Assembly (NCBI GenBank): GCA_046759165.1
Contig: JBHIBS010000040.1
Coordinates: 1 to 12,851 of the forward strand
DNA: 12,851 nucleotides
Origin: a bacterium
GTDB lineage: Bacteria; UBA6262; WVXT01
Direction of reading: 5' to 3'
A program made the translations under genes and the position numbers. The notes below the pieces were generated by a model that ran no database searches, had not been told where the DNA came from, and saw only the letters and a program-made list of their open reading frames with translations. Positions 1 to 12,851 of the stretch are shown here, in pieces. Each line of letters starts with the position of its first letter. Within the stretch, counting starts at the first letter, position 1.

Positions 1-494
1 TTTCTGCTGGAACCTCTGACAGAAAATGGAAAAAAGTCGTATTTGCCGATGAAATATTTACTCGTTTCCTTTATTTTTCTCCAGTCGAGAGGCTCGGGGA
101 TATGCCAGGAGAATCTTCTCTCCAAAGCCGAGGGAAAGGGTTGTTCTAAAATCTGGTAGCGATATACCTTACTCTTAGCACTGTAGCGGGCATTAAAGCT
201 ATCGGGAACTTCTTTAACCTCTTTTATAACGATGTCCGAAGGAAGCAGGCTATTCAATGCTTTACTCAGGCCACCGGTAGGTAGCTTCTCACTTCTGGTT
301 TTGAAGTTGGCAACCTGGCTAAGAGCGTGGACCCCAGAGTCTGTGCGAGCCGCACCTATCAGTGTTATCTCTTCCTCTAAGATTCTTTCCAGGACTTTTG
401 TTATCTCTCCCTGAACTGTCGGTTTCCTCCTCTGGATTTGCCAGCCGAAGTAGTCTGTTCCATCGTATTCAATGGTGAGTTTCATATTGCGCAT
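1..494 (-). CDS. truA: tRNA pseudouridine(38-40) synthase TruA, 5' part (truncated by window edge)
   Basis: Not in the ORF track. Manual translation from ATG at 494: MRNMKLTIEYDGTDYFGWQIQ...TVQGEI...GAARTDSGVHALSQVANF...ALNSLLPSDI...FNARYSAKSKVYRYQI. Contains the TruA YDGxxYxGWQ motif and the catalytic RTDxGVHA motif. Confidence 0.96.
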   Translation of the reverse strand, partial: MRNMKLTIEYDGTDYFGWQIQRRKPTVQGEITKVLERILEEEITLIGAARTDSGVHALSQVANFKTRSEKLPTGGLSKALNSLLPSDIVIKEVKEVPDSFNARYSAKSKVYRYQILEQPFPSALERRFSWHIPEPLDWRKIKETSKYFIGKYDFFPFSVRGSSR

Positions 495-501
495 CTGGAC
501 A

Positions 502-1296
502 TCATAGAATTATGAGGGTTGTGGAGAAGGCAATAATTATCAGAATTGTTACCAAGTCGAAAATTCTAAACTTTGTAGCTTCCAGGTCTCCTCTAGGACT
601 ATCCGGGTCATAGGCTCGTGATTCCATGGCTAAAGCGAATTCATCAGCACGCCGGAAGAGATTGACCAAGAGTGGCACCAGAATTGGAATAATGGCCCGA
701 ATTCTTTTAATCGGATTCTTACGAGAAAAATCTGAGCCTCGAGACTTTTGCGCCTTAATCAATTTATCCATCTCTTCAAAAAGTAAAGGTACAAACCTCA
801 AGGACAGGGTCATCATCGTAGCAATCTTATGTGAAGAGATTCCCACCACTTTCAAGGGGAAGAGGAGAAATTCCAGTCCCCTGGTCAACTTCTGGGGCGA
901 GGTGGTTAGAGTAAGAAGGGAGGCAACGAGTATTAGAAAAATTAACCTCAAGGCAATGAAGGCTCCCAAAGATAAACCCTCTTCGGTAATTTTTACTGGA
1001 CCGAAAGAAACAATTGGGCTTCCCGGAGTGAAAAGTAGATGGAGAAGGAAAGTAAATACAATAATCCAGAGTAAGGGTACAAGTCCTCTAAGGACGAACT
1101 TTATGGAGAGTCGCGCTAAGAGAATTACGGCCAGCAAAAATATGGCCAGAAGAGAGTAGCTCCAGAGGTTCTTAAGAAGGAATATTGAAAGTGATATAAT
1201 CAGAATGGATATAATCTTTGTCCGTGGGTCAAGCCGGTGAATGGGAGAATTGGAAGGAATGTAGCGACCGATAGTGAGGTTATTTAAGAAGGACAT
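502..1296 (-). CDS. ecfT: Energy-coupling factor transporter transmembrane component T (EcfT/CbiQ family)
   Basis: N-terminal GRYIPSNSPIHRLDPRTK, several hydrophobic helices, LTLTTSP, and the ALRF/AQKxRG-type and LAMESRAY Arg-containing coupling motifs. ATG directly follows the asd TAA. Confidence 0.93.
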   Translation of the reverse strand: MSFLNNLTIGRYIPSNSPIHRLDPRTKIISILIISLSIFLLKNLWSYSLLAIFLLAVILLARLSIKFVLRGLVPLLWIIVFTFLLHLLFTPGSPIVSFGPVKITEEGLSLGAFIALRLIFLILVASLLTLTTSPQKLTRGLEFLLFPLKVVGISSHKIATMMTLSLRFVPLLFEEMDKLIKAQKSRGSDFSRKNPIKRIRAIIPILVPLLVNLFRRADEFALAMESRAYDPDSPRGDLEATKFRIFDLVTILIIIAFSTTLIIL

Positions 1297-2373
1297 TTAG
1301 GACCCCAGGATTCTCCCCTTAATCAATTCCTCTGCTATTTCAACTGCGTTTAGAGCAGCCCCCTTGAGGAGGTTATCGCTTACTATCCACATGTTGAGTC
1401 CATTTGGTATCGACTGGTCTTCTCTAATGCGACCAACAAAAGTCTCTTCTCTATCGGCAGCCTTTGTCGCTAATGGATACTTTAGTTTACTGGTGTCATC
1501 TACAACCACAACTCCCTCTGCTTTTTTCAATGTCTGGCGAGCTTCTTCGACAGTAATTTTTCTCTCTGTCTCAATATTTACTGCTTCGGAGTGTCCACGA
1601 AAAACAGGCACTCGAACACAGGTGGCTGTGATGGCAATGGAGTCGTCCCCTATTATCTTCTTTGTCTCGTTGACCATCTTCATCTCTTCCTTTGTGTAGC
1701 CGTCCTCCAAAAATATGTCTATCTGGGGAATGCAATTATAGGCAATCTGGTGGGGAAAGGTTCTTGGCTTTGCTTTTTTGCCAGAGGCAATATTTCCGAC
1801 CTGCTCTTTCAGTTCAACCACTGCCTTCTCGCCTGCGCCAGAGACCGCCTGATAAGTGGAGACAACTATCCTTTTAATCCTGGCTCTCCTGTGTAACGGT
1901 GCTAGGACGACTACCATTTGAATTGTTGAGCAGTTAGGATTGGCGATGATTTTCTTATCTTTAGATAGAGTATGAGGATTGATTTCCGGGACAACCAGAG
2001 GCACTTCAGGATCCATCCTCCAAGCACTCGAGTTATCAATCACAAATATGCCTTCCTGAGCAGCAAGTGGAGCATACTCTTTGGAAATAGAGGCGCCGGC
2101 AGAGAATAGTGCAATATCGAGTCTGCTTGAGAGGCTCGATTTTTCTGCCAGAGGAGAAACTTTAAATGATGAAGGATTAAGTTCCTCAACTGCAAATTCT
2201 TTCCCTTTAAATTTTAGTGTCTTTCCTCGAGAACGCTCGGAGGCAAGCAGTCTCAGGTTAGCTACTGGAAAATTCCGCTTCTCCAGCATTCTAACCATTT
2301 CCCTGCCTACAAGTCCGGTCGCTCCCACTACAGCAACATTAAAGGAAAAAGGGGACAGGCTACTTTTTCTCAT
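1297..2373 (-). CDS. asd: Aspartate-semialdehyde dehydrogenase; first 9 codons lie inside the transposase element
   Basis: VAVVGATGLVG Rossmann motif, IDNSSAWRM, catalytic NPNCST, TYQAVSGAG, CVRVPVFRGHS, DNLLKGAALNA. Confidence 0.97.
   Translation of the reverse strand: MRKSSLSPFSFNVAVVGATGLVGREMVRMLEKRNFPVANLRLLASERSRGKTLKFKGKEFAVEELNPSSFKVSPLAEKSSLSSRLDIALFSAGASISKEYAPLAAQEGIFVIDNSSAWRMDPEVPLVVPEINPHTLSKDKKIIANPNCSTIQMVVVLAPLHRRARIKRIVVSTYQAVSGAGEKAVVELKEQVGNIASGKKAKPRTFPHQIAYNCIPQIDIFLEDGYTKEEMKMVNETKKIIGDDSIAITATCVRVPVFRGHSEAVNIETERKITVEEARQTLKKAEGVVVVDDTSKLKYPLATKAADREETFVGRIREDQSIPNGLNMWIVSDNLLKGAALNAVEIAEELIKGRILGS
2347..2368 (+). repeat. 22-bp inverted repeat, left copy (AAAAGGGGACAGGCTACTTTTT)
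   Basis: Exact reverse complement of 3059-3080. On the minus strand it encodes (R)KSSLSPF of Asd. Confidence 0.97.
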
Positions 2374-3041
2374 TCCTTCCCCACCCTCTTCTTCGGTCTT
2401 CCCCTCGGTCTAAGAGTAGATTCCAATCCCAGCTCTTTACTTACTTGTATCTGCCACATTGATGTGCCATAGGGGGATTGTCGATTAACACTCTGACGAA
2501 GCCCCTCCAAGTCCTTTTCTGTTAGAGGTTCATCCACATATCTATTCCAATCTTGAGGCAATTCTATGGGGATTTCATCAACTAATAAATGCGATCTTTC
2601 ACCAATTGCCCCTCTGTGAGAAGACCACGACCAATCCTTAGCTGAATTAACTAGACCAGCCCTCACTGGATTACCCTCAACATACCTCAGCACCGCCAAT
2701 AAATGATTGTCTTCTTGTATAATAAAACTTTTAAAACGCCCCTGCCATATGTGGCCGCTGGTTCCATAATGCCGATGATAACGGCGCACATGACTGGTCA
2801 TTAGCCATTGCATCCCTTTGTTTAGCTCTTCAGCCTGAATGGGCACTACAACCATATGAAAATGGTTCGGCATTAGACAGTATGCAAAAATCTTTACAGC
2901 ATACCGAGCCTTTGCCTCCCTCATTAAATCAATAAAAGCTTCGTAATCTCGGTCTTTGTGAAAAACCTCCAGCCCGCCATTTCCACGGTTAAGCACATGA
3001 TAAACAAAGCCATCAACCAAGCCTCTTGCAATCCTCGGCAT
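2370..3041 (-). CDS. REP-associated tyrosine transposase-like protein (Y1/HUH, IS200-like superfamily)
   Basis: MPRxAR...YHVLNRGN N-terminus, AYCLMPNHFH (HUH), GHIWQGRFKS, RYVEGNPVRAGLV (catalytic Tyr region), WSWSS, and a basic C-terminal RPRGRPKK tail. These are typical RAYT-like motifs and the ORF is intact. Confidence 0.93.
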   Translation of the reverse strand: MPRIARGLVDGFVYHVLNRGNGGLEVFHKDRDYEAFIDLMREAKARYAVKIFAYCLMPNHFHMVVVPIQAEELNKGMQWLMTSHVRRYHRHYGTSGHIWQGRFKSFIIQEDNHLLAVLRYVEGNPVRAGLVNSAKDWSWSSHRGAIGERSHLLVDEIPIELPQDWNRYVDEPLTEKDLEGLRQSVNRQSPYGTSMWQIQVSKELGLESTLRPRGRPKKRVGKE

Positions 3042-3058
3042 GAGCTAATTCCCCAAAT

Positions 3059-3080
3059 AAAAAGTAGCCTGTCCCCTTTT
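3059..3080 (+). repeat. 22-bp inverted repeat, right copy (AAAAAGTAGCCTGTCCCCTTTT)
   Basis: Exact reverse complement of 2347-2368. Contains GTAG at 3064-3067 and ends 17 bp upstream of the transposase ATG. Confidence 0.97.
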
Positions 3081-3117
3081 CTTTTGTCCAACAAACTTTT
3101 GGCATTCCATCTCATCC

Positions 3118-4173
3118 TTAGCTAATAAACTTAGTGATAAGGTCGCCAACCTCAGATGTGGAGAGACCCATCTCTCCAGCACTCAGCCCCTTTATCTTGC
3201 CAGAAGATAGGGCTTTTCGGATGGCTCCATCGATTAACTTTGCTCCCGCCTCCTCACCCAAATTTTCGAGCATCATCTGCCCGGCAACTATGGCGGCTAT
3301 AGGATTTATTACATTCTTACCTGCATATTTTGGGGCACTTCCATGAATTGGTTCAAACATACTTACACCTTCCGGGTTGATATTTCCTCCAGCTGCCACT
3401 CCCATACCACCCTGAATGATTGCTCCCAGATCGGTTATGATGTCCCCAAACATATTGCAGGTGACAATAGTATCAAACCACTCAGGATTCTTAACGAACC
3501 ACATACAACAGGCATCAACAAATGCATGGTCTTTCTCAACCTCGGGATACTGTTCTCCCACCTTGTAGAATACCCTCTGCCAGAGGTCATGAGCAAATGT
3601 AAGAACATTCGCCTTATCTACAAGAGTTAACCTCATCTTCCTCTTTCTCTTCTTTGTTAATTCAAATGCATACCTGATGCACCTTTCCACACCGTTTCTG
3701 GTATTGACCATCTCTTGAACTGCAACTTCCTCTGGCGAGTCTTTTTTCATAATCCCGCCAATGCCTAAATAGAGACCCTCAGTATTTTCCCTTACAACCA
3801 TGAAATCTATATCCTCCGGCTTTTTACCTTTAAGGGGAGTTGAAACTCCAGGATAGAGAATAACTGGCCTGAGGTTGATATACTGGTCGAGCCCAAAGCG
3901 CAATTTGAGTAGAAGTCCTCTCTCTAATATGCCTGGCTTTACTTGGGGATGGCCAACTGCTCCTAAATATATGGCATTGAGTTGCTTCATCTCTTCAAAT
4001 GGAGAATCGGGAAGGACTTCCCCTGTCTTCAAATACCACTCGCCACCGAAATTATAAGTTGCGGTCTCGTATCTAAACCCTGCTTTTTTTGAAGCAGCAT
4101 CTATGACTTTGAGACCTTCTCTAATGACTTCCGGACCTACTCCATCTCCAGGAATGACCCCTATTTTATACAC
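3118..4173 (-). CDS. leuB: 3-isopropylmalate dehydrogenase
   Basis: [49 protein letters not shown]; sits in a leu operon. Start revised to GTG at 4173, preceded by GGAGG (ORF track start 4203). Confidence 0.93.
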
Positions 4174-4208
4174 CCAGAACCTCCAATGTACATCAAACCG
4201 CAAATAAG

Positions 4209-4727
4209 TTACCCTTTCATTTTCTCTTTTGCATAATTCATTAGTCCCCCAGCACTTATTATCTTTTGGATAAATTCTGGAAATGGCTGTGCTTTATAAT
4301 TTTCGTCCTTGGAGAGGTTAGTTATCCTCCCTCTACTTAAATCGATCAAAATCTCATCTCCAGAACCGATTCTCCTCGACGCCCTCTTACTTTCCAGAAT
4401 GGGAAGTCCGATATTGATAGCATTGCGATAGAAGATGCGGGCAAAAGACTCTGCTAGCACACAGCAGATTCCAGCTTCTTTAATAGCTAAAGGAGCATGT
4501 TCGCGGGACGAGCCGCAACCGAAGTTCTTCCCTGCCACTATACAATGTCCTGTAACTGAGGGACGGTCCAATTTCCCAACGAATTCCTCATCAACTCCTT
4601 CCATACAATGTTTGGCTAACTCTTTAGCGTCGTAAGTGCTTAAGTATCTTGCAGGAATAATATCATCTGTACTGACATTATTCCCGAATTTGTAAGCTCT
4701 TGCTTTAATTTCCGTTTTAATTTTCAT
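4209..4727 (-). CDS. leuD: 3-isopropylmalate dehydratase small subunit (short type-2 LeuD)
   Basis: [49 protein letters not shown] overlap with leuC. Confidence 0.95.
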
Positions 4728-5983
4728 AGTGATTCTGGGCTGATAATTTTTCCAGCAACAGCTGAAGCTGCAGCAATTGCAGGATTGGATAGGTAGATTT
4801 CTGCTTTGGGGTGTCCCATCCGACCGGCGAAATTTCTGTTTGTAGTCGCCATAGCCCTTTCACCTTCGGCCAAAACTCCCATATGACCACCAAGACAGGG
4901 ACCACATGTGGGAGCAGAAACTACTGCTCCTGCATCAACAAATGCTTCCAGGAGACCCTCCCTCAATGCCTCCCGATAAACCCTCTGGGTAGCGGGAATT
5001 ACTATTAACCTCACCCGTGGATGAACCCTTCTTCCTTTTAAAACTTGGCTACTTATTCTAAGGTCTTCGATCCTTCCGTTGGTACAAGAGCCAATGACTA
5101 CTTGATCAATATAGACCTCCCCTACCCGGCTGATCGGTATGGAATTGGAGGGCAAAGGAGGAAAAGCAACCTGTGGTTCAATTTTGCTGCAATTATACTC
5201 AATGACATTCGCATATCGAGCGCTCCTCTCTCCGTGGATAATCTCATACGGCCTTTCTGCTCGAGCCTCGATATATTCGATAGTCTCCGCATCCGGCTCA
5301 ATAATTCCGCTCTTTGCTCCAGCCTCCACCGCCATATTGCACATAGTCAAACGGTCAGCCATACCTAATCGCCTGATAACAGGACCCGTAAACTCCATAA
5401 CCTTATATAGAGCTCCGTCCACCGCAATATCTCCAATCGTGTAGAGGATGAGGTCTTTACCTGAGACCCACTTATTCAATTTCCCTTTATAAACGAACTT
5501 GATTGTCTTGGGGACGCGGAACCAGCATTTGCCAGTGAGCATTGCGAAAGCTAAATCAGTCGAGCCCACGCCACAGGCAAAAGCTCCCAATGCTCCATAA
5601 GTGCAGGTATGAGAGTCGGCTCCGATGATAAGGTCGCCGGGAAGGACAACTCCCTCTTCGGGAAGCAACGCGTGTTCAATCCCCACCCTTCCTACCTCAT
5701 AATAGTGGCTCAACCCCTGTTCCCGTGCAAAACTCCGGAGAATCTGGCATTGCTGAGCCGATTTGATGTCCTTATTGGGAGTAAAATGGTCAGGAACAAG
5801 GACGACCCTATCAGGGTCGAAGACCTTACTTCCTCCCGCCTTTCTAAATTCTTCAATCGCCGGAGGCGCTGTTACGTCATTTCCCAAGGCAATATCTACT
5901 CTAGCCTCAATGAAAGTGCCCGGTTCGACGCCCTTCCTCCCACAGTGTCTGGCCAAAATTTTTTCTGCAATTGCCATACCCAT
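4724..5983 (-). CDS. leuC: 3-isopropylmalate dehydratase large subunit (about 420-aa type-2 LeuC)
   Basis: [27 protein letters not shown] and CGPCLG (4Fe-4S cysteines), [11 protein letters not shown]. Confidence 0.95.
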
Positions 5984-6001
5984 AAAGAAACCACAGAACC
6001 A

Positions 6002-6089
6002 GTTTAGAAGTTGATATGTTGATAAGGAAAAAATTTCTACTCTCAGAACTTATCACCTTATCGACGCATCAACATATCATCTTATCAAC
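6002..6089. repeat. Two convergent arrays of a GTTGATAA-like octamer forming a long imperfect inverted repeat
   Basis: 6002-6025: GTTTAGAA GTTGATAT GTTGATAA. 6050-6089: TTATCACC TTATCGAC GCATCAAC ATATCATC TTATCAAC (reverse-complement orientation). Confidence 0.9.
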
Positions 6090-7671
6090 TACCCCTTTTC
6101 CCTAACTTTTCTCTTGCCACCAGCCTATTGAGAGCATTGGTATAGGCTTTGGCACTGGCTTCAATTATGTCTGTCGATGTACCTCGACCGGTTACTGTCT
6201 TTTTCAATTCGTCAGCACGGGCTGGACCAACTGGTGCAATCTTAACTGTAACCTCACCGAGAGCATCCTTCCCCACAGAAACCGACCTAAGACTGTAATC
6301 GATTAGCCTACACTTAATATTTGTAATTCGGTCTATTGCCCGAAAAGCAGCATCCACTGGACCATCACCACAGGAAGCCTCCTGCAGGACTTCACTCTTG
6401 GCCACCTTTCTGGGTGCAATCAACCTCCTTAACCTCACGGTGGCAGTAGGAACCACTTTGTTTCCAGTAGTTACATTTATATACTCCAACTTGTAAATCT
6501 CCGGGATAAGAGATATCTGATCTTCGACTATAGCCTCGATGTCCTCATCAAAAATCTCTTTTTTCTTATCAGCAAGCAATTTAAATTGCTGAAACGTCTT
6601 ATCCACTTCCTCATTGTTCAATTTATAACCTAACTCTTGCAACTTCTTCCGAAAAGCATGGCGTCCCGAATGTTTTCCTAAAACAAGCCTCCTACCTCCC
6701 AGTCCAACCGATTCTGGAGTCATAATCTCGTAAGTCAATCTTTCCTTGATTACTCCGTCTTGGTGAATTCCTGCTTCATGAGCAAAAGCATTAGCGCCGA
6801 CGATAGCCTTATTGGGCTGAACGATTATGCCGGTAAGTTTACTGACCAAGCGGCTTGTCTTGGCAATCTGCTTTGTCTCGATATTGGTATAGAAAGGAAA
6901 CAGGTCTTTTCTCGTCCTCAAGGCCATCACCACTTCTTCCAGTGAGGCATTTCCCGCCCTCTCTCCGATCCCGTTAATAGTACACTCAATCTGTCTGGCT
7001 CCAAGGGAAATAGCTTCTAGTGAATTAGCTGTGGCCAGTCCTAAATCATTGTGGCAATGGACGCTAATAATGGCCTTGTTAGAACTGGGAACTCTAGCAA
7101 CTACCATCCTGATTATTCTTCCAAACTCTTCTGGCAGGGCATAGCCCACAGTATCTGGAATATTGATTGTAGTAGCACCAGCTTCGATTGTCTCCTCCAC
7201 TACACGCGAGAGGAAGTCTGGATCGGTCCGGACAGCGTCTTCCGCCGAAAACTCTATATTCTCGGTAAATTTCCCCGCATATCTTACTGCAGCCACAGCC
7301 TCCTTAAGGACCTCTTCTCTTGACTTTTTCAATTTATGCTTTAAGTGAATGTCACTTGTAGCAATGAAGGTATGAATGCGCGGGTTCTTCGCATATTTTA
7401 TTGCATCCCAGCAGACATCAATGTCTCTCTTTGTAGCCCGTGCCAACCCAACAATTACCGGCTTCCTAATCTTTCGGGAAATCAGCTTCACTGCCTCGAA
7501 ATCCCCTGGCGAAGATATGGGAAAACCAGCCTCAATAACATCCACACCCAATCTCTCTAATTGTTCAGCGACTTCTATCTTCTCCTTTATATTCAGACTC
7601 GCTCCTGGAGATTGTTCTCCATCTCTTAAGGTTGTATCGAATATTAATATTCTCTCCTTCTTTAATGCCAT
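6085..7671 (-). CDS. leuA: 2-isopropylmalate synthase
   Basis: [57 protein letters not shown], and a C-terminal regulatory domain ([15 protein letters not shown]). Start revised to ATG at 7671 after GGAGGGG (ORF track start 7746 overlaps pssA). Confidence 0.95.
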
Positions 7672-7700
7672 TCCCCCTCCGATACTTACTAAGTGAAATT

Positions 7701-8426
7701 TTAGCGCTGTTTGACCCACGCCAGGCGTAACCTGTAGAACCTCCACAGTGCATTCACTATGCCTGAAAGCGAGTAGCCAACAAAATATACAACAAATATT
7801 ATCGAGATTATATTAGTTGAAAAAAACCAAATAACCAATGCAACCACCATAATAATCAGCATTTTGAACGGTTGCCTTTTGGTAAATCTAAGATTCTTGA
7901 AATTTATGTACTTAATTTTGCTCACCATCAGAAAAGATAAGACTATCATAACCAGAGGAATTGAACCGATGAACAGATGCATCTCCTTTACCCAGAAAGC
8001 CAAAATAAAGAAAGAAGCCAACATGCCCCCTCCCACAGGAATGGGCAAACCATCGAAATAAGCGATATCTTTCTCGGCAGCTTTGACATTGAACCTTGCC
8101 AGCCGCAAAACTCCGGCAATCACAAACAGGAAGGGTACTAACACTCCCCACCTCATGTTTTTTAGAACTACTTGGTACATCAAAATTGAGGGCGCTACAC
8201 CAAAAGAGATTAAGTCGGCTAAAGAATCGAACTCCAAGCCAAACCTACTGGTGGACTTAGTGAGTCTCGCAATCCTGCCGTCGAAAACATCCAAAATAAT
8301 TGCTAGAAGTATCGACCAGGCACTAGCGGTAAAATTTCTGTCAATTGAAGCAATGATCGAATAGAAACCCAACCCTGCATTTCCCAGAGTGAAAAGTCCG
8401 GGAACAAAATAGATTCCCTTCTTCAC
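7701..8426 (-). CDS. pssA: CDP-diacylglycerol--serine O-phosphatidyltransferase
   Basis: [11 protein letters not shown]-alcohol phosphotransferase motif DVFDGRIAR...[34 protein letters not shown] start with upstream GGAGG; adjacent to psd. Confidence 0.93.
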
Positions 8427-8493
8427 CTGAAACCTCCCAAGAACATAAACTACATCTCTTTGTATTCTACAAAATTATATATTGAACCGAAGG

Positions 8494-8584
8494 GTCATTG
8501 CGAGTCCCAATAAGTCGGGACTTCACTTCGTTCGCAATGCCGCTTTGGGAGGACTCCATCGCCGGATTTGACCCGGGATTCCAG
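8494..8584. repeat. Intergenic REP-like palindromes
   Basis: CATTGCGA (8496-8503) pairs with TCGCAATG (8532-8539), with inner stem AGTCCC/GGGACT (8503-8508/8517-8522). A second element, CATCGCCGGATTTGACCCGGGATTCCAG (8557-8584), has a CCGG...CCGG stem. Confidence 0.65.
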
Positions 8585-8587
8585 CAT

Positions 8588-9238
8588 TCAAGAGGGAAAC
8601 TTTCCGAGGAGACTTTCACCCCCAACCACTCTATCTCCCTTCTTCACTTTAGCCTGTACCTGTTGAGGGAGATAGACATCTACCCGTGAGCCAAACCTTA
8701 TCATTCCGATTCTCTGTCCGGCAAGTAGATTGTCTCCCTCCTTACACCAGCAGCATATTCGGCGAGCAACCTTGCCTGCTATTTGCTTTACCAGAATTCT
8801 CTCTCTATTAGAATTTGGCTTGTTGCTCTTTTGAATACCAATGAGATTACTCTCGTTTCGCCCAGAAGCCTCTTCTGTATGAGCAGCTATGAACTTGCCA
8901 GATTTATACTTAATCCATTCTACCTCTCCCTTTATGGGGGACCTTTGAACGTGGACGTTAAATATCGACATAAAAATTCTAACTACCTTCACTCGACAGT
9001 GTAAAAAATTTTGTTCTCCAACTTCAGAGATATCTATTACCTTCCCGTCCGCTGGTGATAGGATTAAGTCTTCTCTTTCCGGAACTTTCCTTTCCGGATC
9101 GCGGAAGAAAAAGAGAGTGAGTGAGGCCAAACATAATAGAAAGAGACTACCAATTTTCCAGAAAAAGAAGAGAACCACAGCTAATAGTAAAGGAGGAAGA
9201 ACAAATTTCCAACCGTCTTTAACAATCCCCATCTGCAA
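8588..9238 (-). CDS. psd: Phosphatidylserine decarboxylase proenzyme (short type)
   Basis: FFFRDPER, SPADGKV, IFMSIFNVHVQRSP, QIAG, and the RFGSRVD self-cleavage motif. Start could be TTG 9238 or ATG 9232. Confidence 0.93.
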   Translation of the reverse strand: MQMGIVKDGWKFVLPPLLLAVVLFFFWKIGSLFLLCLASLTLFFFRDPERKVPEREDLILSPADGKVIDISEVGEQNFLHCRVKVVRIFMSIFNVHVQRSPIKGEVEWIKYKSGKFIAAHTEEASGRNESNLIGIQKSNKPNSNRERILVKQIAGKVARRICCWCKEGDNLLAGQRIGMIRFGSRVDVYLPQQVQAKVKKGDRVVGGESLLGKFPS

Positions 9239-9239
9239 T

Positions 9240-10235
9240 TTACCTCTTCTTTAACCAGGGCATCATTTTCCGCAATCTTGCTCCCACAATTTCAATGGGA
9301 TGCTCCGTCCATTCTCTCCGTCCCCTATTAAATACAGGACGGCCGATTCGGTTCTCCAGGAGCCATTCCCGAGCGAACTCACCGGAACGGACCTCAACCA
9401 GAATTTTCTTCATTTCTCGCCTGGTCTTTCCGGTAATAATCCTCTTACCACGAGTATATTCGCCATACTCAGCTGTATCTGAAATGGAATAGTTCATCCA
9501 GCCAATACCACCTTCCTGAATCATATCAATAATTAGTTTCATCTCATGTAGGCACTCAAAATAGGCAATCTCAGGTTGATAACCAGCATCCACCAGAGTT
9601 TCGAACCCAGCCCTGATTAACTCCACGAGCCCACCGCAGAGAACCACCTGCTCTCCAAAGAGGTCAGTTTCGGTCTCTTCAGCGAAAGTGGTCTCAATTA
9701 CTCCAGCACGGGTTCCGCCTATACCCTTAGAATAGGCTAGCGCCAACTCCTTTGCCTTACCAGAAGTATCTTGAAAAACTCCAATTAGGTTAGGAGTACC
9801 TCTTCCCTCTTGATACATCCTCCTGACCAGATGCCCGGGTCCTTTGGGAGCAACTAAGATTACATCCACATCCTCAGGTGGAATAATCTGGTAAAAGTGG
9901 ATGTTGAAACCATGAGAAAAGCCCAAGACCGCACCCTTTTTTAATTTATTAGCAATCTCATTTTTGTAAACGACGGACTGGACATCATCGGGAACCAGCA
10001 TCTGAACCCAGTCAGCATTTTCGGTCGCTTCGCCTGCAGAAACTGGCTTCCAGCCATCTTCAACTCCCCTTTTCCAATTCTCAGTTCCCTCGAGTTCAGC
10101 CACCACCACGTCTAACCCACTATCTCGCAAATTCTGACTCTGGGCATGCCCTTGGCTTCCATAACCAATGATTGCAATCTTCTTTCCTTTCAAAAGCTCC
10201 AAATCTGCATCTTTATCATAGTATACCTTTACCAT
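9240..10235 (-). CDS. ilvC: Ketol-acid reductoisomerase (class I)
   Basis: [65 protein letters not shown] ribosome-binding site upstream. Confidence 0.97.
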
Positions 10236-10256
10236 AAAAATCCTCCTCTCAAATTT

Positions 10257-10288
10257 GTTGATAACATGATATGTTTATAAGTTGATAA
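10257..10288 (+). repeat. Tandem GTTGATAA-like octamer array (4 units)
   Basis: GTTGATAA CATGATAT GTTTATAA GTTGATAA; same unit as the arrays at 6002-6089. Confidence 0.85.
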
Positions 10289-10503
10289 GTATTTGTTTCT
10301 TCTCTTTTCTATTTCAGTTTGAAATAGCTGTGAAGAGCTTTTCGAATTTTAGCCAAAAAAGGGGAGGGCTATCTTCTTTCAAGCAAAGATCTGTTCCACG
10401 TCGCAATTGCGGGTGAGTTTATTTTTGCGCCCTGGAGAGTCCGAAGTTTTTTGGCGTTAAAAAATTCCTCAGCTCAGCAATGAACAAATTATCTTTCAAA
10501 TCC

Positions 10504-10977
10504 TTATCCCCTTCCCATTGCCACAATCCCCGTCCTGACCATCTCCTTTATCCCAAAGCGCTTAAGCATATTGACCAGGGCAAGTATTTTCTCTTCATCA
10601 CCTGTAATTTCTACAATCACAGAATTAGGAGCAACATCCACTATTTTTGCTCTGAAGATATCGACAATTTCCAGAACTTCTGACCGTTTCCCCTTTCCAG
10701 CATTTACCTTGATTAGAACTAGGTCTCTTTCCAGATGTGGTTGTTCTACAAAATCGGTAACTTTTATTACATCTATGAGTTTATTCAATTGCTTCATAAC
10801 CTGTTCTAAAATCCTCTCATCCCCTTTAACTACTATCGTCATTCGAGAGATATCAGGTTGCTCGGTTTCCCCTACTGCTAAACTATCAATGTTGAATCCA
10901 CGGCCACTAAAAAGGCTTGATATTCGCGCCAAGACTCCGGGCTTATTCTCCACTAAAACAGAAACCGTATGTCTCAT
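10504..10977 (-). CDS. ilvN: Acetolactate synthase small (regulatory) subunit
   Basis: [36 protein letters not shown] domain, [24 protein letters not shown]. Confidence 0.97.
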
Positions 10978-11004
10978 TGATTCCTCCTCCTTTGAAAACG
11001 GTAA

Positions 11005-12693
11005 CTATGCCAACCCACGGATTACTTCATCCAGCCTTGCGCCTGCCGGCACCATAGGAAAGACATTCTCTTCCCTTTCCACTAAGAAATCTAAAATCAC
11101 AGGTCCATCCACGGAAATTGCCTTTCTCAACGCATCTTCTACCTCATCCTTTTCACTTACTCTTATGCCAAAAGCTCCATATGCCTCGGCAATTTTCACA
11201 AAATCTGGATTAGATGATAGGTCTGTGGCTGAATATCTTTTCTTATAGAATAGCTGCTGCCACTGTCTAACCATGCCAAGATATCCGTTGTTTAAAATTG
11301 CAACTTTAACTCCTACCTTGTTATTGACAGCTGTTGCCATCTCCTGGATATTCATTTGAATGCTGCCATCCCCGGCTATATCAAAGACAATCTTTTCAGG
11401 CTTAGCTAATTTGGCGCCGATAGCTGCTGGAAAACCGAATCCCATTGTGCCCAATCCTCCGCTGGTAATAAAGTGGCGGGGGTAGTTGTATTTATAGAAC
11501 TGCTGGGCCCACATCTGGTTTTGCCCAACTTCTGTGACTATAATTGCCTTGCCCTTTGTTACTTCGTAAATCTTCTCCACTACATATTGCGGACGGAGTT
11601 TGCGGTCCTTCTTATAAGTCAGTGGATTCTCTTTTTTCCATTGAGAAATCTGTTTTTGCCATTTCTTTCTTTTCTCTATATTTTTGGGCCCCAATTTGCT
11701 AAGGAGTTTGTTCATCTCTCTCATAACGCTCTTTGCGTCGCCCACAATGGGAATATCTACTTTCACATTTTTGCTTATAGAAGTGGGATCGATGTCTATG
11801 TGAATTATCTTTGCCTTGGGAGCAAAAGCATCGAGTCTCCCTGTAATCCTATCGTCAAACCTTGCTCCAATAGCAATAATTAAGTCTGAATTCTGTATAG
11901 CATGATTTGCGAAATAAGTCCCGTGCATTCCCAACATGCCCAAAAAGAGTTCGGACTCTGTTGGAAAAGCGCCCATTGCCATCAACGTGAGAGTTACAGG
12001 GATCTGGGTAATTTTAGCCATTTCGTTCAGTTCTCCAGAAGCTCCTGAGATGATAATGCCGCCACCGGCATAGATAACCGGGCGCTCAGACTCTTTTATT
12101 AGGTCTACTGCTTTTTTTATCTGCTGCGGGTGTCCCTCATATTTAGGTTTAAAACTGCGAATGTTTACTTCTTTGGGATACACGAACTGACAGGAGGCTC
12201 TCTGGACATCTACCGGCAGGTCGATGAGCACAGGTCCAGGTCGTCCTGTTCGGGCGATGTGGAACGCTTCTTTAATAGTGCGGGCGAGCTCCTTAACGTC
12301 TGTGACCAGATAGTTATACTTTGTTATTGAGCGGGTAACTCCAGTGGTATCCGCCTCTTGAAATGCATCATTGCCCACCAGATTAGTAGGCACTTGGCCT
12401 GTAAATGCCACAACAGGAACTGAATCCATATTTGCTGTAGCCAAACCTGTGGTCAGATTGGTCGCTCCTGGACCCGAAGTGGCTATACAGACACCAACTT
12501 TGCCTGTTGCCCGGGCAAATCCATCAGCCATATGGGCTGCCCCCTGCTCATGACGCGCAAGAATAAATTTGAGCGCTGCCCCGTACAGAACATCAAAAGT
12601 CGGAAGCAACGCTCCTCCGGGTATCCCAAATATTATTTCCACCTTTTCTTTAATTAAACTCTCCGCAAAAATCTGTGCACCGGTAAGCCTCAC
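11005..12693 (-). CDS. ilvB: Acetolactate synthase large subunit, biosynthetic type
   Basis: FGIPGGA, RHEQGAAHMADG, TSGPGATN, DAFQE, GARFDDR, ThDP motif GDGSIQMN...NN, GMVRQWQ, VFPMVP; GTG start. Confidence 0.97.
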   Translation of the reverse strand: MRLTGAQIFAESLIKEKVEIIFGIPGGALLPTFDVLYGAALKFILARHEQGAAHMADGFARATGKVGVCIATSGPGATNLTTGLATANMDSVPVVAFTGQVPTNLVGNDAFQEADTTGVTRSITKYNYLVTDVKELARTIKEAFHIARTGRPGPVLIDLPVDVQRASCQFVYPKEVNIRSFKPKYEGHPQQIKKAVDLIKESERPVIYAGGGIIISGASGELNEMAKITQIPVTLTLMAMGAFPTESELFLGMLGMHGTYFANHAIQNSDLIIAIGARFDDRITGRLDAFAPKAKIIHIDIDPTSISKNVKVDIPIVGDAKSVMREMNKLLSKLGPKNIEKRKKWQKQISQWKKENPLTYKKDRKLRPQYVVEKIYEVTKGKAIIVTEVGQNQMWAQQFYKYNYPRHFITSGGLGTMGFGFPAAIGAKLAKPEKIVFDIAGDGSIQMNIQEMATAVNNKVGVKVAILNNGYLGMVRQWQQLFYKKRYSATDLSSNPDFVKIAEAYGAFGIRVSEKDEVEDALRKAISVDGPVILDFLVEREENVFPMVPAGARLDEVIRGLA

Positions 12694-12700
12694 AGTACCC

Positions 12701-12708
12701 CCTCCTTA
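12701..12708 (-). promoter_or_regulatory. Shine-Dalgarno sequence of ilvB (TAAGGAGG)
   Basis: Consensus TAAGGAGG, 7 nt upstream of the GTG at 12693. Confidence 0.9.
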
Positions 12709-12712
12709 TGTG

Positions 12713-12851
12713 AATCAGCCTGTGCTCAATAGGGGCAACCTCACAGGTTTCCCCTGATTGCGTTCGCTTCGCTCTCTGTTCCCCGGGGCGCTCACCATCT
12801 CGCGCCCGTCGCTAACACGGAGCTCCTTATTCGTCGCTCCAGCGACCCCTT
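12713..12851. other. Highly structured GC-rich region upstream of ilvB (palindromic repeat cluster or leader RNA)
   Basis: Hairpins at 12727-12760, 12786-12807 and 12808-12846, plus alternative pairings; truncated by window end. Confidence 0.6.

Follow-up and report, generated by a model that had tools for sequence, protein, structure and literature searches.

A RAYT-type element appears to supply the start codon, Shine-Dalgarno-like stretch and N-terminus of asd

In the 12,851-nt stretch of DNA from a hydrothermal-vent habitat analyzed here (the window), a RAYT-type mobile element lies between leuB and asd, in a co-directional ilv-leu-asd gene array, and comparison with related sequences supports that this element supplies the start codon, a Shine-Dalgarno (SD)-like stretch and the N-terminus of asd. 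The best explanation for the whole, which we consider very likely, is that asd is translated from an ATG made of the last sense and stop codons of the transposase gene (gaATGA). Translation would read outward through the right repeat of the element, giving MRKSSLSPF-SF before the first Rossmann strand, and the purine-rich tail of the transposase gene, which encodes Lys, Arg, Gly and Glu, would serve as SD-like sequence. Through the 4-nt stop/start overlap, initiation of asd is probably coupled to the end of transposase translation, and the extra residues would form a floppy tail tolerated by the enzyme. The right end of the element (transposase tail, ATGAG and repeat) may be a translation start that is portable whether or not the transposase gene is kept, and the asd leader reading GGGGAAGGAATGAG would come from the element and not be native to the family. 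The features of the region are shown in Table 1.

Table 1. Features of the leuB-asd region, with positions in the window.
Feature	Positions	Strand	Remarks
leuB (3-isopropylmalate dehydrogenase)	3118..4203	-	Upstream of the element; Pfam Iso_dh 4.1e-94
leuB-asd spacer remnant	3081..3117	-	Homology with the element-free allele reaches ~3093
Left 22-nt inverted repeat arm, REP-like	3059..3080	.	Lies 18 nt 5' of the transposase ATG
RAYT-type Y1 (HUH) transposase gene, 223 aa, apparently intact	2370..3041	-	Pfam Y1_Tnp 1.5e-13
Purine-rich 3' tail of the transposase gene (GAAGAGGGTGGGGAAGGA)	2374..2391	-	Putative SD-like stretch for asd
ATGA: asd start (2373-2371) overlapping the transposase stop TGA (2372-2370)	2370..2373	-	
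Right 22-nt inverted repeat arm	2347..2368	.	Last base of asd codon 2 and codons 3-9 (K S S L S P F)
Junction bases TCCTT	2342..2346	-	Between the repeat and 2341, where native-allele homology resumes
asd (aspartate-semialdehyde dehydrogenase), 358 aa	1297..2373	-	First 9-11 residues from element and junction

The two repeat arms are 100% complementary over their 22 nt and separated by 690 nt. The initial annotation had placed the only ATG ahead of the Asd Rossmann motif (NVAVVGATG) inside the element, at 2373, in an ATGA overlap with the transposase stop and behind a G-rich stretch of the transposase 3' end, and had read the repeat as KSSLSPF up to a codon boundary at 2347; all of these points hold. 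On the minus strand, the transposase gene ends with AAG AAG AGG GTG GGG AAG GAA TGA, the purine/G-rich stretch GAGGGTGGGGAAGGA lies immediately 5' of ATG 2373, and the asd frame runs ATG(2373-2371) AGA AAA AGT AGC CTG TCC CCT TTT(2349-2347) TCC TTT AAT GTT GCT GTA GTG GGA GCG ACC GGA, which is translated as MRKSSLSPFSFNVAVVGATG. Upstream of this ATG the frame stays open for 12 codons (open frame of 370 aa), none of which is ATG, GTG or TTG, and the next canonical start after it is the GTG of codon 16, within the first Rossmann strand. The predicted diagnostic tryptic peptide of the repeat-coded Asd N-terminus is SSLSPFSFNVAVVGATGLVGR, with SSLSPFLYNVGVVGATGLVGR as its related-lineage counterpart. 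At the other end of the element, bases 3092-3081 (GTTGGACAAAAG) are absent from the element-free allele, according to a by-eye alignment with the spacers of relatives G003 and G008 and to element-free contigs of runs X4 and X5, whose loose end lies at 3093. No target-site duplication was found by eye at the junctions of the genome of the window (G000, 92% complete; all genomes compared are metagenome-assembled) and of its relative G005. Similar 11-mers lie left of the element in G000 (TTGGACAAAAG) and right of the repeat in G006 (TTGGACCGAAG).

The transposase reaches 80.1 bits against the NCBIfam profile REP_Tyr_transpos (NF047646), which is borderline for a cut-off of 80, and its sole PDB sequence match is E. 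coli TnpA-REP (4ER8), where the HxH and Tyr positions align, with NHFHM opposite EHMHC and RYVEGNPV opposite DYIYINPV. Judged by these alignments, the protein shows the Y1/HUH domain with HxH and catalytic Tyr expected of a RAYT. Inverted flanking repeats that recur elsewhere in the genome, also expected of a RAYT, are present: G000 has six exact copies and two with 2-3 mismatches, a number beyond chance since a reversed control pattern gave 0. Across 33 homologous transposase loci, the left arm is found 35-114 nt upstream of the transposase ATG in 26 and the right arm at most 16 nt from the transposase stop in 23. This organization is like that of RAYT/REP systems (E. coli TnpA-REP and the REPINs of Bertels and Rainey), in which a Y1 HUH gene lies between inverted short repeats scattered genome-wide and some repeat copies form inverted doublets folding into a long hairpin; here, an inverted doublet is found on contig C16 of G000. 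The flanking of RAYT genes by inverted REP copies is described in an excerpt of PMC3184786, and the window repeat contains GTAG, as does the GTAG-tagged REP class in an excerpt of PMC3733652. However, the single 22-mer is not a palindrome and folds with only -0.9 to -1.6 kcal/mol, and its 20-mer core (at most 2 mismatches) has seven copies in G000 and 9-32 in relatives, whereas strictly defined REPs are imperfect palindromes with a stem-loop in each unit and a high copy number. Furthermore, REPs are described as lineage-specific, whereas the identical 22-mer is present, among the matches listed, in genomes labelled as many phyla, and the transposase ORF here ends on or beside the right repeat. 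Cultivable carriers of the repeat include Desulfoscipio geothermicus DSM 3669, Citrifermentans bremense R1 and Sulfurospirillum species. The behaviour of the repeats is that of terminal inverted repeats or of REPIN arms, and not of classic REPs. Their low copy number and wide spread resemble, by description rather than by reference sequences, RAYT Group 1 of Bertels et al. (2017), for which low repeat copy number and wide taxonomic spread are given in an excerpt of PMC5581495, and we take this as a lead only. Among the literature matches listed, no description of a RAYT/REP right end as a start for host genes was found, nor anything relevant on MITEs, start codons and N-termini, and a search for the 13-nt core of the repeat (either orientation, DNA or RNA) returned only human primers and genes. 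Locus L344 was rejected as a repeat copy, being a chance 17-nt match within an acetolactate-synthase-like ORF.

Comparison of Asd N-termini, proposed in the initial annotation, showed that the element-free relatives lack MRKSSLSPF and have a leader of their own. In six of the nine family genomes (G000 and eight relatives), asd begins with ATG AAA AAA TAT AAT (MKKYNV) behind an AGGAA leader; in the other three (G000, G001 and G005), it begins with MRKSSLSPF. The element-free contigs of runs X4 and X5, from two other metagenomes, are ~97% identical to the window over asd (25 differences in 754 nt) and ~98% over the leuB part 3105-3690. At 2341 they depart from the window and continue as the reverse complement of ATTGTGAGTTAGGAAATGAAAAAATA, the native leader with its start (ATG AAA AAA TA). 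The window has neither the native asd leader, nor the native ATG and first three or four codons, and, as judged from this alignment, its allele is a replacement and not a simple insertion relative to the closest native relative. In G006, L376 and L442, an ATGAG-repeat is followed 40 nt further on by an intact native leader and ATG, and the G006-type alleles keep a transposase-tail remnant ahead of ATGAG and repeat. The window allele may have arisen by insertion in the spacer and subsequent deletion, a history which fits the G006-type alleles with their remnant 40 nt upstream of an intact native start.

The sequence just 5' of ATG 2373 is transposase coding and homologous to transposase tails elsewhere. 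Furthermore, gATGAG plus repeat forms the junction at the transposase end in unrelated genomes where the neighbouring genes are different (L170, L176 and L300), and most of the 95 metagenome ATGAG-repeat copies retain transposase-tail remnants such as PRGRLRKRVGKE followed by the stop. Together with the native MKKYNV relatives, this transposase-coding sequence argues for the view of the initial annotation that start, SD-like stretch and N-terminus of asd come from the element.

A search for other proteins beginning MxKSSLSPF, also proposed in the initial annotation, gave many positives. The metagenomes gave 77 distinct ATGAG-repeat copies that are followed by 92 or more codons of DNA; among them, an open stretch of at least 90 codons is found in the ATG frame of 30, in the other stop-free frame of four and in the TAG frame of none, a count which includes related copies (asd ~6, M48 ~5, DUF2344 ~5) and overstates independent events. 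In 141 generic repeat copies, the same three frames are open in 22, 20 and 0, respectively. One collection scan of repeat copies covered exact matches only. Among 14 representative ORFs, all in the ATG frame, 11 match Pfam families, with the profile starting 0-27 residues past the nine repeat-coded ones: Semialdhyde_dh, Epimerase_2, Na_sulph_symp, Aminotran_4, Peptidase_M48, DUF1846, GATase_7, MFS_1, adh_short, Epimerase and DUF2344. Additional repeat-headed cases are Trp_syntA, PQQ_2 and DUF3108. According to these ORF predictions, asd begins with the module in several related lineages, as do members of at least ten other gene families. The repeat region gives a stop to the upstream ORF and a start to the downstream ORF in the window as well as in L266 and L433. 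The C-terminal readings put forward in the initial annotation, KGDRLLF and KGTGYF, occur inside some upstream ORFs.

Asd is normally needed for Lys/DAP, Thr and Met synthesis. The protein of the window obtains 459.2 bits against TIGR01296 asd_B (cut-off 324.2), with residues 12-352 on profile positions 1-338, and is predicted to be a full-length Asd above the curated cut-off. Its AlphaFold2 model has a mean pLDDT of 93.5; residues 1-10, with a mean of 53, show no secondary structure, and strand 1 comprises residues 11-16. Residues C148 and H261, which we take to be the catalytic Cys and His, are in invariant columns of a 73-sequence Asd alignment. A second asd, which the initial annotation had suggested looking for, was not found in the 92%-complete genome, where the other match is argC; dapA-type and homoserine dehydrogenase genes are present. 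The dN/dS values of 0.08-0.15 in pairs with fused alleles and 0.11-0.13 in native pairs indicate that asd is under purifying selection similar to that of the native alleles.

The predicted duplex between the transposase tail and the genome's own 16S 3' end has -10.9 kcal/mol, and those of the native asd leaders of G002 and G003 range from -5.9 to -6.8 kcal/mol. Only ~4 nt separate the end of the best SD-like pairing from the ATG, which AAGGA directly abuts, and the native leader shows identical geometry. Should the region form a single transcript, a 22-bp duplex between the two repeats is predicted, beginning 2 nt after the AUG; this duplex could hinder, not help, asd initiation, and a terminating transposase ribosome would open it. 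Transposase gene and asd are co-directional and overlap by ATGA, as translationally coupled pairs do, and this overlap and the predicted repeat-repeat duplex suggest that asd expression may be tied to that of the transposase. In an excerpt of PMC6728339, ATGA overlaps are 4-nt overlaps of co-directional genes with termination-reinitiation coupling; here, unlike in such pairs, the upstream partner is a transposase gene and not a subunit of the same complex. In G005 the stop/start overlap is 14 nt, because the transposase ORF there ends on the TAG of the repeat. Coupling to the transposase is not obligatory, since fused alleles without the transposase gene exist (G001, L394 and L411). Transcription of asd would occur by read-through: no terminator-like site was found on the coding strand between leuB and asd, and a scan of the minus strand for the sigma-70-type consensus gave no site within or close to 2347-2420. 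The scans support no specific signal, because their counts (6 promoter sites in 5 kb for 7.8 expected, and 4 terminators for 4.4 expected) do not exceed chance level.

The repeat-coded N-terminus (M[R/K]KSSLSPF...) is found in 11 of the 60 closest Asd protein clusters; 48 are native-type and one is truncated. The fused alleles are scattered among native ones on the Asd tree and are not monophyletic on the rpoB tree. The leuB-transposase-repeat-asd architecture of the window is also found in G005 and on contigs L369, L449, L453, L399 and L436. The junction of the window reads TCC TTT AAT, and that of the other fused alleles CCCCTTTT followed by TT(G/A) TAT AAT, or with the Tyr codon missing. 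G000 and G005 share similar identities in the transposase gene (82.7% at nucleotide level), asd (80.8%) and leuB (81.9%). Despite this similarity, we did not rely on co-divergence of the transposase with its flanks since the family ancestor, because a ~97% identical relative is native and the Asd tree shows the fused alleles in scattered positions; a better fit for them is spread through recombination, or repeated events.

An unlikely alternative is that ATG 2373 would be the original asd start, behind which a 21-nt repeat unit was inserted in frame (+7 residues), with the transposase abutting. Without AAAAAGTAGCCTGTCCCCTTT, the window would read ATG AGT TCC TTT AAT (MSSFN), near the ATG AGT TCN TAT AAT (MSSYN) of asd in the order-level relatives G009 and G010. 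Furthermore, Asd clusters P0004 and P0020 read MKKSSLSPFLYNV, which is native MKK/YNV plus SSLSPFL, P0014 and P0016 read MKKSSLSPFLNV, with four clusters in all beginning MKKSSLSPFL, and the scatter of fused among native alleles would be compatible with a single site where the unit was repeatedly inserted and precisely excised. However, what precedes the ATG in G000 and G005 is transposase coding sequence, ending in RPRGRPKKRVGKE and the stop, and not the native leader ATTGTGAGTTAGGAA, and ATGAG-repeats with transposase-tail remnants are found at many other loci. In addition, G006, L376 and L442 have both an ATGAG-repeat and a separate native ATG, the family natives and G011 are MKKY and not MSSY, and MKK differs from MRK by one transition.

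It is highly improbable that translation of asd begins elsewhere, at an internal or non-canonical codon (CTG codon 6 or GTG codon 16), or that this copy is silent or decaying and DAP, Lys, Thr and Met are obtained otherwise. A second asd could be unassembled in a 92%-complete genome, and the predicted 22-bp duplex adjoins the AUG; however, the ORF is full-length and far above the asd_B cut-off, its dN/dS is as in native alleles, and the fused N-terminus is in frame in G001, G005 and the 11 fused clusters. Initiation at GTG codon 16 would cost the Rossmann fold its strand 1, and since CTG codon 6 also lies within the repeat, a start there would still come from the element. We give almost no credence to an assembly artefact, that is, a chimeric contig joined at the repeat. 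The repeats are multi-copy and many run contigs break or join at 2346-2370 and 3050-3080, but run X1, possibly the source, has a 5768-nt contig that matches the window without difference over 1300-4200, and the same gene order recurs in G005 and the contigs named above. Initiation at the element-borne ATG 2373 remains the preferred reading.

The closest precedents of this start are the Neisseria REP2, MIRU and Rickettsia RPE repeats. As in Neisseria REP2, where a repeat donates RBS and ATG in in-frame ORF fusions at several loci, the module is a candidate start donor; however, REP2 is described as also holding a promoter and 5' UTR, without a transposase link, whereas here the module has no sigma-70-like site and consists of a transposase 3' end and a terminal repeat, which replace the native start of a housekeeping gene. 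The arrangement of MIRUs is said, by Supply et al. in 1997, to preserve translational coupling; among the literature matches listed on this point, all were on coupling in general. MIRUs lie, as the element here, within operons and have small ORFs whose ends overlap neighbouring genes (an excerpt of PMC3184786), but they sit between intact genes, whereas here the repeat would itself encode a piece of the downstream enzyme. Rickettsia palindromic elements (RPEs), ERIC, BOX and Anabaena MITEs are likewise short mobile repeats in frame in, or fused to, genes, and such MITE-ORF fusions add a conserved, structurally tolerated peptide, according to excerpts of PMC10969869 and PMC3184786. RPEs are ~150 bp and mostly internal, whereas here 22 nt and an upstream ATG would form the very N-terminus and the initiation site.

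As a wider reading, we tentatively suggest that the cross-phylum RAYT right end (purine-rich tail, ATGAG and 22-nt repeat) could be a selected stop-and-restart cassette. The TAG of the repeat, in one frame, would end any ORF running into the repeat, and the next-frame ATG, 11 nt upstream, would restart translation outward through it. The element and its transposase-less derivatives could then settle in operons and gene starts without polar damage, and the element would provide a working start and an MRKSSLSPF tag for at least a dozen genes with housekeeping roles or encoding transporters and secreted proteins. This may help to explain the persistence of an identical 22-mer across phyla.

Transposon insertions at gene starts are normally seen as knock-outs or promoter donors, and the benefit of RAYT/REP elements to their hosts is debated. 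For its start codon, SD-like stretch and N-terminus, asd, an essential biosynthetic gene, appears to rely here on a RAYT-type element. For annotation, this would call for care in start prediction near such repeats, because proteins beginning M[R/K]KSSLSPF would be real gene starts and not miscalls. If true, the finding would also mark the cross-phylum 22-nt repeat as worth study and provide a route for wholesale exchange of N-termini, signal-peptide beginnings included, and RAYT/REP elements would gain a concrete way of being neutral or useful to the host.

All long ORFs of the window lie on the minus strand and form an array of 13 tightly packed co-directional genes (positions 1-12851), in which the transposase gene is oriented like the rest. 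The Y1 protein just reaches the cut-off of the NCBIfam model of REP-associated tyrosine transposases (80.1 bits, cut-off 80), and the only protein of known structure that it matches in sequence is E. coli TnpA-REP (4ER8), in an alignment that pairs the HxH motifs and the tyrosines. The genome of the window (G000) has two more RAYT-like genes, on contigs C4 (C4:49795-50472) and C118 (C118:2067-2435); one is 36% identical to the window transposase, and the other is 40% identical over a part and has an in-frame TAG.

Features of the window, from high to low coordinates, with gene names according to Pfam
Feature	Position	Strand	Remarks
ilvB, ilvN		minus	acetolactate synthase large and small subunits; highest coordinates of the array
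ilvC		minus	ketol-acid reductoisomerase
psd		minus	phosphatidylserine decarboxylase
CDP-alcohol phosphatidyltransferase gene		minus	after psd
leuA, leuC, leuD		minus	after the CDP-alcohol phosphatidyltransferase gene
leuB	3118-4203	minus	
Left inverted repeat arm	3059-3080		22 nt, perfectly complementary to the right arm
Y1_Tnp transposase gene	2370-3041	minus	223 aa; bracketed by the arms
Right inverted repeat arm	2347-2368		22 nt
asd	1297-2373	minus	
CbiQ/EcfT-type protein gene		minus	after asd
truA		minus	pseudouridine synthase; lowest coordinates

The transposase frame ends in GGG AAG GAA TGA, and the A of GAA with the TG of TGA makes the ATG (2373-2371) that opens the asd frame, which reads ATG AGA AAA AGT AGC CTG TCC CCT TTT TCC TTT AAT GTT GCT GTA GTG GGA. 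From this start, the right arm is read as the last base of codon 2 and codons 3-9, and its end at 2347 coincides with a codon boundary. The 12 in-frame codons 5' of the ATG contain no ATG, GTG or TTG, and the next canonical start 3' of it is a GTG at codon 16. The initial annotation had described this ATG, its ATGA overlap with the transposase stop, the repeat-coded codons and the codon boundary, and each of these was correct on re-reading. Its core claim, that the element supplies the start and N-terminus of asd, is supported by element-free relatives and by the transposase sequence before the ATG, and we consider it probable that the right end of the element supplies the asd start.

Asd is present in 37 of the 41 genomes searched, including all eight family relatives (G001-G008), and its start was read in the nine family genomes. 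In G002, G003, G004, G007 and G008, asd starts with ATG AAA AAA TAT AAT GT (MKKYNV) after ..GTGAGTTAGGAA or a variant. G006 keeps the native leader and start of these five genomes, and about 40 nt upstream it shows an 18-nt transposase-tail-like remnant, ATGAG and the repeat with one mismatch, which form a 16-codon ORF with its stop just before the native ATG. G001 lacks the transposase gene, and its leuB stop leads directly into GAGAAGGG, ATGAG, the repeat and TTA TAC AAT; in G005 the full element lies at the leuB-asd junction. Both genomes give the Asd N-terminus MRKSSLSPFLYNV. The outgroup proteins start with MSSYN (G009 and G010) and MKKYS (G011). High-depth population contigs from two public runs of other studies (X4 and X5) differ from the window at 25 of 754 nt in asd and 12 of 586 nt in leuB. 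They part from it at 2341, continuing as the reverse complement of ATTGTGAGTTAGGAAATGAAAAAATA (native leader and start), and, on the leuB side, at 3093, where they enter a different repeat. A relative about 97% identical is therefore element-free, and the MRKSSLSPF start is absent from element-free relatives, which have the native one instead. The repeat at 3093 belongs to a second family, GTCATTGCGA[GA]CGAAG..GAAGCAATCTCG, that fills the native leuB-asd spacers of G002, G003 and G004 (L011, L012, L016) and adjoins 22-mer copies in genomes labelled as other phyla (L073, L104, L115).

Among the 60 closest Asd protein clusters (82-90% identity), 11 start with M[R/K]KSSL[S/P]PFL(Y)NV, 48 are native-type and one is truncated, and in the topology of a FastTree of these proteins the fused alleles are scattered among native ones. 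The genomes with a fused asd do not group together in an rpoB tree (542 codons) either: G001 branches at the base, followed by G000, and the sister of G005 is the native G004 (support 91). Fused asd genes are preceded by a full transposase (L369, L449), by a transposase and a second tandem repeat (L399, L436, L453), or by no transposase gene (L394, L411, G001). The initial annotation had proposed that asd expression would be tied to the transposase gene; the alleles without it prove that such coupling is not required for a fused asd.

In comparison with the relative about 97% identical, the window differs by a replacement. It has 12 nt, the element and 5 nt where that relative has the spacer past 3093, the leader and ATG AAA AAA TA. 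Judging by this comparison, the window allele cannot be a simple insertion at the asd start, as had been proposed. The element or its right end would first have lain in the spacer ahead of an intact asd leader, as in G006-type alleles, and a deletion of about 32 nt may then have joined asd codon 4 to the ORF of the element. Such a deletion is consistent with the flanks: the three bases that follow the repeat in G005 (TTG) are also found behind the G006 repeat ((C)TTGG). The window junction is TCC TTT AAT, while the other fused alleles seen have TT(G/A) TA(T/C) AAT or lack the Tyr codon. The fused alleles may go back to one origin, with later spread by recombination, or to a few origins. A similar 11-mer is found left of the element in G000 (3081-3091, TTGGACAAAAG) and right of the repeat in G006 (L015, TTGGACCGAAG), and may be left over from a target duplication or from the earlier spacer.

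Several lines of sequence comparison place ATG 2373 in the element. The bases ahead of it are transposase coding sequence, and the alignment of the G000 copy with that of G005 extends to the ends of both, at 82.7% nucleotide identity; a frame change in the last codons makes the G005 ORF end on the repeat TAG (..TKKDEKK, 14-nt overlap with asd) and the G000 ORF on the TGA of ATGA. The transposase gene also meets the repeat as gATGAG plus repeat in unrelated genomes, where the adjacent genes are different (L170, L176, L300). A scan of metagenome contigs for exact matches to ATGAGAAAAAGTAGCCTGTCCCC gave 95 matches in 94 stretches, most of them with transposase-tail-like remnants upstream, such as ..PRGRLRKRVGKE, GYKRVGKE and ..WERNEKK, each ending in a stop. 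If, alternatively, the native asd ATG had been kept and 21 nt inserted in frame behind it, the MKK-SSLSPFL-YNV variants among the Asd clusters and the ATG AGT starts of G009 and G010 would be accommodated; however, the transposase sequence before the ATG, and the presence of ATGAG plus repeat alongside a separate native ATG in G006, L376 and L442, make this improbable.

The 25 nt before ATG 2373 are predicted to pair with the 16S rRNA 3' end of G000 (GGATCACCTCCTTTCT) at -10.9 kcal/mol; the predicted values are -7.3 and -10.0 kcal/mol for the fused G001 and G005, and -6.8 and -5.9 kcal/mol for the native leaders of G002 and G003, respectively. The transposase tail is purine-rich because it codes for Lys, Arg, Gly and Glu, and the frequent ending ..D/N-E-K-K plus stop (NAT GAG AAA AAG TAG) gives an ATG in the next frame. 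No terminator-like site was found from leuB to asd on the coding strand, and the scan for promoter-like sites was not above chance level, so read-through from the leu genes is the simplest assumption for how asd would be transcribed. When the RNA 3100-2320 was folded as one, the repeats were predicted to pair over 22 bp in the MFE and centroid structures alike, in a duplex that encloses the transposase ORF and begins 2 nt after the asd AUG. A ribosome terminating at the UGA would open this duplex, and reinitiation at the AUG that overlaps the stop would thereby be favoured; an ATGA overlap is a classic arrangement for termination-reinitiation (PMC6728339).

G000 has a single asd; a second, weak Asd match is argC (458 bits to TIGR01850). 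The genome also holds genes for dihydrodipicolinate-synthase-type and homoserine dehydrogenase enzymes, consumers of the Asd product. The window Asd scores 459 bits against asd_B (cut-off 324), with the profile beginning at residue 12, and C148 and H261 fall in invariant columns of a 73-sequence alignment. Pairwise dN/dS values with fused alleles are 0.145 (G000-G002), 0.079 (G000-G001) and 0.146 (G005-G004), and those of native pairs 0.114 and 0.125. In the AlphaFold2 model (mean pLDDT 93.5), residues 1-10 average 53 and show no secondary structure, and strand 1 comprises residues 11-16; by this prediction, the added residues form a loose extension that precedes the Rossmann fold. Retention of the fused allele in frame in many backgrounds, at a single-copy biosynthetic gene, is best explained if the ATG of the element is the working start of asd.

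G000 (165 contigs, 92% complete) contains six exact copies of the 22-mer and two with 2-3 mismatches, and none of the reversed control pattern. Flank similarity ends exactly at the 22-mer ends, and one pair on C16 is an inverted doublet. A single unit has a predicted fold of -0.9 to -1.6 kcal/mol and the C16 doublet a predicted 22-bp hairpin of -26.4 kcal/mol (z -5.6); by these predictions, the arms resemble REPIN arms or terminal inverted repeats rather than classic REPs, which are palindromes in themselves. Diverged variants stand side by side in 22-mer clusters at C11:35944-36046 and C11:6335-6400 (AAAAGGTGACAGGTACTTTTT, AAAAAAGTGGTCAGTAAAAAAG, GGGGTCAGAGTCAATTTTT), which suggests related repeat subfamilies in G000. 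Family genomes have 7-32 copies each of the 20-nt core (up to 2 mismatches). At least 125 stretches of the genome collection (L043-L167) contain the 22-mer, AAAAAGTAGCCTGTCCCCTTTT, without a mismatch; their records are labelled Aminicenantes, Nitrospirota, Clostridia, Myxococcaceae, Elusimicrobia, Campylobacterota and others, and isolates such as Desulfoscipio geothermicus DSM 3669 and Citrifermentans bremense R1 are among them; such conservation across labelled phyla is unusual for RAYT-linked repeats. The flanks of these copies diverge right at the ends, and many copies are inverted doublets 25-70 nt apart. One candidate copy, L344, was rejected as a chance 17-nt core match in conserved coding sequence of an acetolactate-synthase-like ORF (..MGVKVACPHKTVVNIDGDGSF..), and short-pattern matches therefore need checking.

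Transposase homologues (50-82% identity) were found across many labelled phyla, and the survey covered 33 of the 59 loci returned (L168-L198, L200, L202), the other 26 being short or distant matches. The left arm lies 35-114 nt upstream of the transposase ATG in 26 of the 33, and the right arm within 16 nt of its stop in 23. The ORF enters the right repeat and stops at its own TAG (AAA AAG TAG CC) in 14 (L169, L170, L172, L173, L176, L177, L182-L186, L189, L191, L192); the tail of the window transposase gene differs in frame by one base, and its stop accordingly lies one base ahead of the repeat. At three of the 33 loci, the KSSLSPF frame starts from an ATG within or beside the element and continues as a long ORF: L171 (ATGA overlap; MKSSLSPLFIAFAFSLSSA..., 496+ aa, Pfam PQQ_2), L192 (ATG inside a variant repeat; 484+ aa, no Pfam match) and L170 (MRKSSLSPFPCPC...; position 1 of the Trp_syntA profile at residue 19, E-value 2.3e-4, below the cut-off, on a contig that ends after 47 aa).

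Among 77 distinct ATGAG plus repeat copies with at least 92 codons of downstream DNA, the ATG frame is open (at least 90 codons) in 30, the other stop-free frame in four and the TAG frame in none; the corresponding counts for generic 22-mer copies among the matches listed (n=141) are 22, 20 and 0. In the four copies with the other frame open, the ORFs look antisense or belong to a gene that seems to have a start of its own. Many copies are counted more than once as orthologues from related organisms, which brings the independent events down from 30 to perhaps 11-16, and some fused ORFs keep a native internal start in frame (L368, L404 and a TatC-like ORF of G003). Eleven of 14 representative ATG-frame ORFs have Pfam families and three have no match. 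These eleven families are Semialdhyde_dh, Epimerase_2, Na_sulph_symp, Aminotran_4, GATase_7, MFS_1, adh_short and Epimerase, as well as DUF1846 (profile position 3 at residue 9), DUF2344 (position 1 at residue 15) and Peptidase_M48, in which a lipoprotein-like signal begins with the repeat-coded residues. The genome collection also shows such ORFs (DUF2344 in L266; DUF3108 in L273, MSKSSLSPF...), and within the family, fusions at genes other than asd occur in G001, G003, G005 and G008. The search for further proteins starting with MxKSSLSPF, suggested by the initial annotation, thus gave many positives in several Pfam families, from metagenomes and the genome collection.

In L266 (231-923, minus), L433 and L459 (G001:C18), an upstream ORF (..FKEVLPWSHLIYGKGWNEKK) ends on the repeat TAG and the DUF2344 ORF starts at an ATG 11 nt before it; the repeat region would thus act as stop and restart between two genes that are fused or adjacent in other bacteria. 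The asparagine-synthase-like ORF (GATase_7) of L469 (G005:C91), L392, L468 (G008:C119) and L388 is headed by a repeat-coded segment, either single or doubled in tandem (e.g. MRKSSLSPFLTGESEKKSSLSPFLAGIVDGS...), and its start has no following Cys. A Cys after the start is expected of an N-terminal-nucleophile amidotransferase, and its absence is odd.

Delihas (PMC3184786) and a 2024 review on MITEs (PMC10969869) cover in-frame fusions between repeats and host ORFs. Among the known cases, Neisseria REP2 stands at the head of 14 genes and provides a promoter, RBS and ATG, MIRU ORFs overlap adjacent operon genes at their ends, and Rickettsia RPEs lie in frame within many genes. RAYTs and REPINs are presented as single-copy transposases with genome-wide repeats (PMC5581495, PMC3116915, PMC3337134). 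We found no description in the literature searched of a RAYT end as translation start or of this 22-mer, and the case is thus a variation on known in-frame repeat fusions. Here the probable start donor combines the terminal repeat of a RAYT-type element with the 3' tail of its transposase gene, and the gene that it serves is a housekeeping gene in single copy. The generality of this module as a start donor exceeds what had been proposed for asd.
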